In this document: positions 61,994-64,000 of the stretch, piece by piece
Numbering within the stretch: position 1 is the first letter of the stretch
Layout: every line of letters starts with the position of its first letter
Source of the DNA: Pseudovirgaria hyperparasitica
Taxonomy: Eukaryota
NCBI GenBank assembly: GCA_010093815.1
Contig: ML996581.1
Direction: 5' to 3' (one strand)
DNA: 64,000 bases
Position numbers and translations under genes: made by a program
Notes under the pieces: generated by a model
Database searches by the model: none
What the model saw: only the letters and a program-made list of their open reading frames with translations
What the model was told of the DNA's origin: nothing

Positions 61994-63262
61994 AAACCGC
62001 CACATTTTGGCATTTCGTGGGGATATTTACACGTTGGGGTCGGGTGGTGTGGTGGATGTATGAGTAATAATTAGTTGACATGTCGCGGCGCAAGATAAAA
62101 GGGCGCGCTGGCATGAAAGTAAGAAATGTTTACATAGACAATACACAGAATTGCTTTTCTGTCGACCCCTCTCTTATCTACCCTACCTCCCTTCTCGCGT
62201 TTCCACGATCACGAACAAGCCCATCTTTCTGCATCGGCGCTGAATGGACCCTTGGTCCATTCATCCGTCCGGATGGGAAGGTGCTGGCGAAACCTCCTCA
62301 GGTTCAAGAATCAGTATCCGTTTGTTTTTAAAGCTAGATATTACAATTAGTACAAAAGTGACTTTGAAAGGAAGCGTGGCAGTGTGATGGATCAGAACCT
62401 CGCCCGAGGGTGAATCTAACTGTACTGTACACGTTACCAACCCAAACATCGTTGAATATGATCGTTTGGCCAACACAGCCACGTCGCTTTGCATCGCATC
62501 GCATCGCAACATAGTTCCAAATGTGGTGCTTGATTGACCTGATGATTCTCACAATCTCCCGCTAGAAAGGAGGCAAGAAAGTGAGTAGGAATGCAAAGCA
62601 AAGCAAGGGACAGACAGATAAACAAGGAAAAGATAATAGCACCCCCGGGACCCGCACCCGATGCCCTTCAGACTATATCTATACGCGTATATGCATACGT
62701 GCATATATTACACATGTGTGTGTAACAACGCATACGGGTTCCAGATTCATCAGGCGAGTTCTGGGCCTGGTCCTTGGTTCTAATGATGTTGCGTCATGGA
62801 GTGAGTATATTGGAACGATATAGTCTAGAGGAATGGCAAATTCTGCGTGCCTTTGGTTTTGCGATAAGGATTGAGGGTTGAGAGGAGTGGTGAGTTTCTC
62901 TTCTAGTCAAAAGATGTGTAGGCTGTTAGGTGTGGGTGCGCTTTTGTCAAGGCTATAGCTATGTATGTATTAATATATGAGGTTATGCATAGTTTCACAG
63001 GGTGAGTCAGAGTAATCATCTAAGGAATTCTTGGACGTTTGGATGAGACAGTACAGGGGAAATGATTGATCATTTGTTAGTGCTATTCATTCTAGATGAC
63101 GACACACTTGGATGGTAGGCCACAGGGACCGCCTTTGTCATGCTCTTTGCGCTCTTGCGGGCTAGATCCATTCTCCTGGTTGTTCGTCGCTGCTGGCGTG
63201 GAAGTGGCCCTGTCGTTACCACTGGCTGGTGGTGGTACGGGCTGCTTCTTCTGGCCATCTAG

Positions 63263-64000
63263 TCACGCGAAGTTAACCTTGGACACAGCCTCGTAGAAGG
63301 CCTTGCCCTGTCTCTCGGCGATCTCGAGCTCCTTGGGAGAAGGCTGGCGCTGGCCCTGAGAGCCCTGTGACGCATCGTCAGTCAATCAACGCACAAAATC
63401 TCTAGTTTCTGCGGAGGGACGAACAGCGAATGTGCCTGCTCCCCATGGAGAGCCTCCATGAAGCTCGCTCACATCACTGAGCAGATCACCAGCCACCTTG
63501 TATCCGAGCGGGACGTAGATGAGACCGTGGTGAGCCAGCGTGCTCATCGCCGCAATGGCGGTGGATTCTTGACCTCCGCCCGGGGTGCCGGAACTGACGA
63601 AGAGACCGGCGTATTTACCCCATAGAGCACCTGTGAGAATGGGATGATGGATCAGCGAATGCTAGATACATTGCCATGGCTCATGATCAGGCGTACCTTG
63701 GCTCCATAGACCGCCTGTCTTGTCCCAGAGGACCTTCCACTGGGCAGGAAAGTTTCCGTATCGTGTGGGGATGCCGAAGAGGAAGGCATCGTATTCTTTC
63801 AGGGTGTTGACGTCGGTGAGGACTGGCACATCGGAGGACTTTGCTGGGGCGTGCATCTTGCCGAGGACCTCGTCGCTGAGGGTCTCTGGGACTCTTCATG
63901 GCAGTTAGCAGTGAGTCGTTCGTGAGCTTATGAGACTCACTGGTAGACCGTTACACTGCCACCAGCAGCCTCAATACCCTTCTTCTCAGCATCAGCTAGC
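63263..64000 (-). CDS. PST2: Flavodoxin-like NAD(P)H:quinone oxidoreductase (WrbA/Pst2/Ycp4/Alt a 7 family); 5' end beyond the right edge
   Basis: [87 protein letters not shown]...RQPS..ELEIA..QGKAFY..VSKVNFA*. Three introns visible. Confidence 0.93.

Follow-up and report, generated by a model that had tools for sequence, protein, structure and literature searches.

Among the cellular genes of fungi and animals, programmed readthrough of stop codons has mainly become known as a way to expose peroxisomal signals. In glycolytic enzymes of Ustilago and other fungi, and in animal MDH1 and LDHB, the stop is followed by a short in-frame extension ending in a peroxisomal targeting signal (PTS1), so that one gene supplies two compartments (PMC4207609, PMC4359377; all papers are cited here for individual passages of their text). 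In both Ustilago and human cells, UGA CU(A)(G) is a context that enhances readthrough (PMC4207609), and UGA-C was the leakiest four-letter stop in ribosome profiling of Neurospora (PMC12790415). Here, a gene on the minus strand of a 64,000-nucleotide stretch of the genome of the Dothideomycete Pseudovirgaria hyperparasitica was analyzed (GenBank contig ML996581.1; the whole stretch is called the window below). It encodes a predicted quinone reductase and carries the same stop and the same downstream letters as the PTS1 cases, again followed by a short in-frame extension that ends in a putative sorting signal. Unlike in those cases, the signal is a CaaX box accompanied by an upstream cysteine, the destination would be a membrane surface instead of the peroxisome lumen, and the conserved context, known here from sequence alone, reaches to approximately +11 (CTAGATGG). 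Freitag et al. are said to have described, in 2012, that some fungal lineages arrive at the peroxisomal outcome by splicing instead. As an earlier note on the window had proposed, leaky termination at UGA-CUAG in front of a CaaX tail probably allows this one gene to supply both a soluble and a membrane-tethered quinone reductase.

Within the same enzyme family, the closest described system is Ycp4 of budding yeasts and Candida. Ycp4 of Candida albicans has a ∼90-aa extension with a CAAX end, and the plasma membrane harbors all four flavodoxin-like proteins of this organism (PMC4556627). In yeast, Ycp4 carries palmitate and appears among the listed substrates of the Ras palmitoyl-transferase Erf2 (PMC5364179; bioRxiv 10.1101/2023.04.27.538084). 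Two premises of the earlier note, that UGA-CUA(G) acts as a readthrough signal in animals as well as fungi (PMC4207609) and that Ycp4 carries a CAAX-ended extension and is lipidated (PMC4556627), agree with these descriptions. Flavodoxin-like enzymes shield membranes from lipid peroxidation and contribute to Candida virulence (PMC4556627); the mechanism recruiting them to the plasma membrane and to eisosomes has been described as unknown (bioRxiv 10.1101/2023.04.27.538084). The gene presented here shares with Ycp4 a hydrophilic, CaaX-ended extension with a second cysteine near the CaaX cysteine, and association with the plasma membrane and eisosomes, which has been reported for Ycp4 (PMC4556627; PMC5364179; bioRxiv 10.1101/2023.04.27.538084), may hold for its long form as well. 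By this analogy, the gene would work like Ycp4 but differ in build: the yeast tail is part of the ordinary open reading frame (ORF) of a separate paralogue (e.g., L065, which ends in NCCSIM and lacks the GPCGLPxK motif described below), whereas here a TGA separates core and tail.

Exposure of a CaaX box by removal of a stop is known from hepatitis delta virus, where RNA editing eliminates a UAG so that the large antigen acquires a short prenylated CaaX tail and an altered function; there, editing acts on a viral protein, whereas here it would be the ribosome that acts on a cellular enzyme. The arrangement of the two cysteines resembles that of H-Ras and N-Ras, in which, at the end of a flexible region, the farnesylated cysteine of the CaaX box is preceded at a distance of a few residues by a cysteine that can be palmitoylated, but these anchors are constitutively encoded and belong to an unrelated family. 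A screen of Drosophila readthrough extensions yielded one predicted prenylation signal, for which the passages cited describe no conservation or follow-up (PMC3840789); human extensions have likewise been screened for prenylation signals (PMC4359377). No report of a readthrough-generated or stop-separated CaaX tail was found for this enzyme family in the full-text literature (subscription journals and preprint supplements being outside its scope). What we class as new is the deeply conserved combination of a known readthrough motif with a known lipid signal, alongside a parallel splicing route to the same tail.

A conserved TGA-CTAG context between enzyme core and tail

The coding sequence (CDS) on the minus strand specifies a 205-aa product 100% identical to the annotated "flavoprotein WrbA" of P. 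hyperparasitica. This protein (P0002) matched the domains Flavodoxin_1 (42.5 bits; cut-off 25), FMN_red (38.8; cut-off 24), and Flavodoxin_2 (27; cut-off 27); comparison of the tail with Pfam matched no family. A protein database search gave 4541 matches to the 205-aa query at E ≤ 1e-40. Among the best 120 listed, the 119 other proteins share 64–78% identity with the query at 96–100% query coverage and carry names such as Alt a 7, Cla h 7, Pst2, benzoquinone reductase, and WrbA. Judging from these similarities, the gene product is a WrbA-type flavodoxin-like NAD(P)H:quinone oxidoreductase of the Pst2/Ycp4/"Alt a 7" group. The annotated protein terminates in KVNFA exactly at the TGA (…AAG GTT AAC TTC GCG TGA), which is followed by CTAG (63262–63259) and ATGG; an Aspergillus fumigatus relative (P0112) likewise ends in KVNFA. 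Beyond the TGA, the same frame continues for 56 codons as LDGQKK…GGPCGLPSKCVVI before it is closed by a TAG, with the second cysteine six residues upstream of that of the CaaX box, CVVI. For the stop, its context, the open frame, and the CaaX end with its second cysteine, the sequence is as the earlier note had described it.

Relatives were obtained by scanning metagenome contigs with an alignment of 20 orthologues, and the best 80 of 353 confirmed stretches were analyzed; in each locus, the first in-frame stop after the core was located and the sequence beyond it was then read. The loci were sorted into 42 of a readthrough type (TGA, then an in-frame open extension to Cxxx; 38 of them distinct), 12 of an intron type (the same tail behind a stop-containing intron), 24 without a tail, and two that were incomplete, one of which (L021) shows TGA-CTAG and LDG before its contig ends. 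The main set comprises 39 distinct tail-bearing in-frame sequences, that is, the 38 environmental ones and the window, and was selected for ending in Cxxx. In the core, the sequences are only 57–76% identical.

The first stop was TGA in all 39 sequences. The bases following it were C (38), T (38), A (34), and G (27), then A (36), T (35), G (37), and G (32). As seven-letter contexts, TGACTAG occurred 27 times, TGACTGC four times, TGACTAT and TGACTAC three times each, and TGACTAA and TGATCGC once each. The context that the earlier note had expected orthologues to keep, TGA-CT(A)(G), is therefore retained, with CT in 38 of 39 and CTAG in 27 of 39 sequences; the window itself has TGA CTAG, matching UGA-CUA-G and its longer form, UGA CUA GAU GG. 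In the 24 tail-less homologues, TGA-CT was never found, the stops being TAA (12), TGA (9), and TAG (3). At the second codon after the stop, GAT outnumbered GAC 24 to 1 and CAT outnumbered CAC 7 to 0; T is thus held at +9 although a change to C there would be synonymous, a sign of constraint on the nucleotide sequence itself. ATGG, the conserved stretch spanning +8 to +11, may belong to the termination or readthrough context. Its AUG (at +8 to +10 in 33 of 39 sequences) opens an ORF in the +1 frame that encodes 62 aa in the window (63258–63070); this ORF is not conserved, the +1 frame containing 36 stops over the 39 sequences. Reinitiation at this AUG, four bases past the stop, was dropped as a source of the tail because the AUG is in the +1 frame and the tail in frame 0. 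Insertion of selenocysteine at the UGA was dropped as well, because fungi are described as being without the machinery (PMC4207609).

The extensions are between 44 and 91 codons long. When the first three codons were omitted, frame 0 contained no stop in 2253 codons, compared with 36 and 135 stops in the other two frames. At their ends, 36 of the 39 sequences carry the motif GPCG[LM]P..C... (referred to as canonical). In the last 12 codons of these 36, entropy summed to 7.11, 5.15, and 18.49 bits at codon positions 1, 2, and 3, in contrast to 22.5, 22.4, and 21.7 bits in the 12 triplets past the second stop. Changes in the terminal motif are, accordingly, overwhelmingly at third positions, and its invariant glycine and proline residues are encoded by all four Gly and all four Pro codons. 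The second stop was TAG in 18, TGA in 11, and TAA in 10 sequences. Third-position variation together with the intact frame indicates that the tail is translated and selected as a protein despite the conserved TGA; protein-level selection, as far as such comparisons reveal it, acts on the tail. The earlier note had called for precisely this pattern, namely, a frame-preserving extension with synonymous-biased substitutions and a terminal CaaX box in orthologues.

The cysteine four residues from the end is present in all 39 sequences, which were chosen for Cxxx, and is invariant in 40 aligned tails. The a2 position of the box is Ile (22) or Val (14) in 36 of 36 canonical sequences; in all, 21 distinct CaaX boxes occur. 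The X position is mostly Leu (13) or Met (12); Ala, Ser, Gln, and Val are also among the six commonest residues, and Ile occurs as well. All seven are X residues of the kind accepted by prenyl transferases. In the four loci L020, L058, L054, and L055, the tail varies: two read …DKFCG(L/V)xC(I/V)(V/I)(A/V), without the GP and LP residues, and two read …GSCLPKGCTVI, all four retaining two cysteines and a CaaX end. The residues P/S/T/A/G/Q/N/K/E/D account for 45 of 56 in the extension of the window and for 92% of the linkers, of which 5.9% is hydrophobic, with the 12 residues before the motif being rich in E and K.

Public annotation gives an inconsistent picture of the locus: most entries end at the TGA, three gene models skip the stop, and several metagenome calls read W. 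Among the best 120 proteins listed, 113 are 201–208 aa long; inspection of eight, the seven longer ones and one of 208 aa, revealed a tail with the same motif in three, namely, those of Teratosphaeria destructans (261 aa, ending in GPCGLPVKCTVS), Phyllosticta capitalensis (258 aa, GPCGLPVKCEVM), and Penicillium waksmanii (256 aa, GPCGLPKKCTIQ). In these three models (P0042, P0093, and P0098), the core is fused to the tail and the stop is skipped. The three named proteins imply that the tail is conserved in at least two classes of Pezizomycotina and usually remains unannotated. A search of a representative library gave 16 matches, seven of which were inspected; in four (P0122, P0123, P0126, and P0127), the residue at the position of the stop is W. 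This was not taken to indicate a sense codon, because the gene caller probably translated TGA in these metagenome calls. A comparison of the last exon plus tail, restricted to longer proteins, matched nothing but the protein of the window itself. Alignment of a 42-residue tail gave no match at E ≤ 10 among 7989 candidates, a weak null because long proteins crowd out relatives.

That annotation closes the protein at the TGA, and that most orthologues among the best 120 are of the short kind, would also fit an untranslated relic, be it of an ancestral long gene cut by a nonsense mutation, of chance, or of an assembly error. However, variation confined to third positions in the tail motif and a frame that is intact at 57–76% core identity rule out decay, and separate spliced contigs (see below) confirm the TGA, which makes a relic hardly credible.

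The stop codon in RNA-like contigs and in intron-type relatives

Contigs of two sequencing runs (X1 and X2; one sample, library type unspecified) were aligned with positions 62000–64000 of the window. Each run yielded one high-depth contig (962 and 834 nt, respectively) that is joined across three GT..AG introns. In both, the TGA is unaltered, no other letters occur, and there is no joint across the stop; the contigs run on through the extension to 63079, beyond the TAG, and to 63103. The main form of the mRNA thus appears to hold stop and tail unspliced. As the unchanged TGA in spliced contigs is also common to the orthologues, it is no assembly error, a possibility that the earlier note had raised together with an mRNA end upstream of 63092 and with splicing or editing of the stop. 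For the mRNA end, the contig that reaches 63079 passes the second stop, but the contig ends at 63079 and 63103 and the uncovered region 62162–63078 carry no information on the poly(A) site. Splicing or editing of the stop is opposed by the lack of a joint or of another letter, as far as the main form in this one sample is concerned. Among the relatives, 21 of the 38 distinct ones are on contigs of ≤1.81 kb with an uninterrupted match of 189–205 codons, a region in which the gene of the window has three introns. These 21 hold TGA and tail contiguously and look like spliced transcripts.

The 12 intron-type loci (L014, L032, L036, L041, L043, L044, L046, L048, L049, L050, L051, and L062) have the same core and the same GPCGLPxKCaaX tail, again with a stop in between, but here the stop (TAA or TGA) is located inside G|GTGCGT(A/G)A, the start of an intron with a CTRAY branch site 13–23 nt before its AG. 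Removal of this 60–133-nt intron joins the core in frame to the tail, and its retention would yield the short form. Unlike in the readthrough type, the frame beyond the stop is often shifted or closed: in the loci with TAA and in L051, which has TGA, the tail occupies a different frame or is cut off by intervening stops. For the TGA-type loci L036, L041, and L043, together with L048, the duplicate of the latter, the frame past the stop stays open as well, and these four may represent intermediates. Among the named proteins compared, the intron-type loci are closest to those of Hypocreales (65–80% identity). In a quick tree of 71 core sequences (204 columns; 12 of 68 branches starred, hence of low resolution; root not inferred), all 10 distinct intron-type rows fell into one starred clade of 14, together with four readthrough-type rows. 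This clade is nested in the tail-bearing group of 44 rows, over which readthrough-type rows are scattered, and this weakly suggests that the readthrough layout is older than the intron layout.

Because relatives use splicing, alternative splicing is the most serious rival to readthrough in the window as well: a small TGA-containing intron would be removed to produce the tailed form, and the unspliced mRNA would encode the short one. The 12 related loci have precisely such a layout, and the three database models with a skipped stop link core and tail directly. Yet the window has none of the intron-type features, GT(A/G)NGT being absent at or before its stop. The base preceding the TGA is G in just 21 of 39 sequences, which means that a GTGACT donor is not conserved, and the sole in-frame GT..AG pair spotted by eye would remove 102 nt, starts with GTTAAC, and is without a branch consensus. 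Furthermore, the stretch from stop to CaaX is open in 39 of 39 sequences, whereas introns of the TAA-containing loci carry stops or shift the frame; the contigs show no joint across the stop; and a TGA that is spliced out would have no need of conservation. We therefore regard splicing as a very unlikely origin of the tail in this gene.

A-to-I editing of the mRNA in a developmental stage, converting UGA to UGG (Trp), would also yield the tail. Loss of stops through such editing occurs frequently during the sexual stage of Sordariomycetes, where it generates C-terminal extensions, and is biased to UAG (PMC13123824). By contrast, the stop was TGA in every sequence of the main set and never TAG, and the letters conserved around it are those of the readthrough motif. 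The contigs contain no other letter at the stop, although contigs conceal rare variants, and the arrangement occurs in sequences closest to proteins of Dothideomycetes and Eurotiomycetes, outside the Sordariomycetes documented in the passages cited (PMC13123824). Editing is, on this evidence, highly improbable.

A putative membrane-anchored isoform

Readthrough, which we favor over splicing and editing, would operate as follows. Most ribosomes would halt at the UGA and release the soluble 205-aa enzyme; a minority would insert a near-cognate amino acid at the leaky UGA-CUA-G and read 56 codons to the UAG, giving a minor 262-aa form beside the major one. The added piece is predicted to be a hydrophilic, disordered linker with GPCGLPSKCVVI at its end. 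The cysteine of CVVI would be prenylated, the last three residues cleaved, and the new end methylated, whereas the invariant cysteine six residues upstream would, by likeness to yeast Ycp4, be palmitoylated. So anchored, the long isoform would probably reside at the plasma membrane or at eisosomes, where enzymes of this kind maintain ubiquinone in its reduced state and curb lipid peroxidation. Because WrbA-type enzymes are oligomeric, a few tailed subunits might tether mixed complexes. The comparison thus strongly supports what the earlier note had read from one gene, a short form and a prenylated Ycp4-like one, with its sequence features now found conserved; readthrough, lipidation, and tethering keep the status of inference.

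A translated tail could also serve without a lipid anchor, for example, as a cysteine pair that binds metal or forms a disulfide, or as a signal for degradation or interaction. The conservation of the GPCGLPxK preceding the CaaX box exceeds what such a box on its own would require, and tails generated by readthrough or editing in fungi can be destabilizing elements (PMC13123824). Against such functions speak the cysteine that is always four residues from the end, the restriction of a2 to Ile or Val in 36 of 36 sequences, the variation of X among residues typical of prenyl-transferase substrates, and the palmitoylated, CAAX-ended tail of the yeast relative Ycp4; on balance, we give a non-lipid role little credence.

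Several observations weigh against readthrough to a lipid anchor as the explanation, or limit how far it reaches. The case for readthrough itself is comparative, and contigs drop rare variants, so that a minor spliced or edited isoform could be hidden. One tail-bearing sequence (L003) carries TGA-TCGC in place of CT. L006 and L007 are without a tail even though they are close relatives within the tail-bearing group, and L013, the second incomplete locus, has TGA-CTAG and LDG but reaches a stop after 15 codons. No stable RNA structure was found after the stop (mean z −0.44; 4 of 39 sequences below −2; window −0.77), so the efficiency of readthrough may be low. The ratio of nonsynonymous to synonymous substitution rates (dN/dS) is only moderately low in the linker (0.36 when 15 disjoint closest pairs are pooled, compared with 0.25 for the last 30 codons of the core), a soft figure because it stems from protein-guided alignments of low-complexity sequence. 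The type of prenyl group is ambiguous when X is Ile, as in CVVI. Finally, the relatives are environmental contigs, and their taxonomic spread is therefore only partly anchored. At L013:685-1150, an unrelated translation-GTPase-like ORF lies in the same frame past the stop, so that this contig either was assembled as a chimera or has genuinely lost its tail.

If the long isoform is made, several consequences follow. Cellular readthrough, so far tied mainly to peroxisomes, would gain a conserved case of lipid anchoring, which would widen its uses, and the tail offers a simple mechanism for the recruitment of flavodoxin-like proteins to the plasma membrane and eisosomes. Since the tail is present in three of the best 120 database relatives, and only via models that skip the stop, the long isoform is largely missing from fungal proteomes. 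Alt a 7 and Cla h 7, two allergens of moulds, are orthologues of these enzymes. The occurrence of readthrough-type beside intron-type relatives is a natural experiment on the evolution of dual-isoform genes.

A more speculative thought, which we put forward tentatively and consider rather unlikely, is that the conserved 11 bases UGA CUA GAU GG form a regulated dial instead of a fixed leak and set the membrane-anchored share of the enzyme, perhaps tuned by oxygen or redox state; oxygen-dependent hydroxylation of the ribosome has been speculated to modulate termination at UGA-C (PMC4207609). Were this true, the antioxidant capacity of the plasma membrane would be coupled to translation fidelity. 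Ascomycetes would then have found three solutions to one need, a duplicated gene in yeasts, readthrough in the majority of filamentous lineages, and, in a single derived clade, an intron that contains the stop.

Features of the window

The coordinates of the gene and of the elements around its two stops are compiled in Table 1.

Table 1. Elements of the quinone reductase gene and its in-frame extension, in window coordinates.
Feature	Position	Strand	Basis and remarks
First coding exon in the window (part)	63941..64000	−	Contig pieces, match to P0002; gene leaves the window, ∼18 N-terminal codons outside
Intron, 47 nt, GT..AG	63894..63940	−	Joint 63893/63941 in X1 and X2 contigs
Coding exon	63695..63893	−	Contig pieces, P0002
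Intron, 66 nt, GT..AG	63629..63694	−	Joint 63628/63695 in contigs
Coding exon	63424..63628	−	Contig pieces, P0002
Intron, 60 nt, GT..AG	63364..63423	−	Joint 63363/63424 in contigs
End of annotated CDS (GSQGQRQ...AVSKVNFA)	63266..63363	−	Sequence, P0002
TGA, annotated and proposed leaky stop	63263..63265	−	Sequence, orthologues, RNA-like contigs
Conserved CTAG ATGG directly after the stop	63255..63262	−	Base counts over 39 sequences
In-frame extension of 56 codons, predicted disordered linker and terminal motif	63095..63262	−	Open frame
Conserved terminal motif GPCGLPSKCVVI	63095..63130	−	GPCG[LM]P..C... in 36/39, tail alignment
Upstream Cys of the motif, candidate palmitoylation site	63122..63124	−	Invariant in 40/40 aligned tails; function inferred
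CaaX box CVVI	63095..63106	−	Sequence; Cys invariant
TAG, second and true terminal stop	63092..63094	−	Sequence

In the same two runs, a separate contig of ∼6.8–6.9 kb ends within the window, at 62161 (X1) or 62147 (X2), and indicates a long neighboring transcript or locus downstream of this gene.

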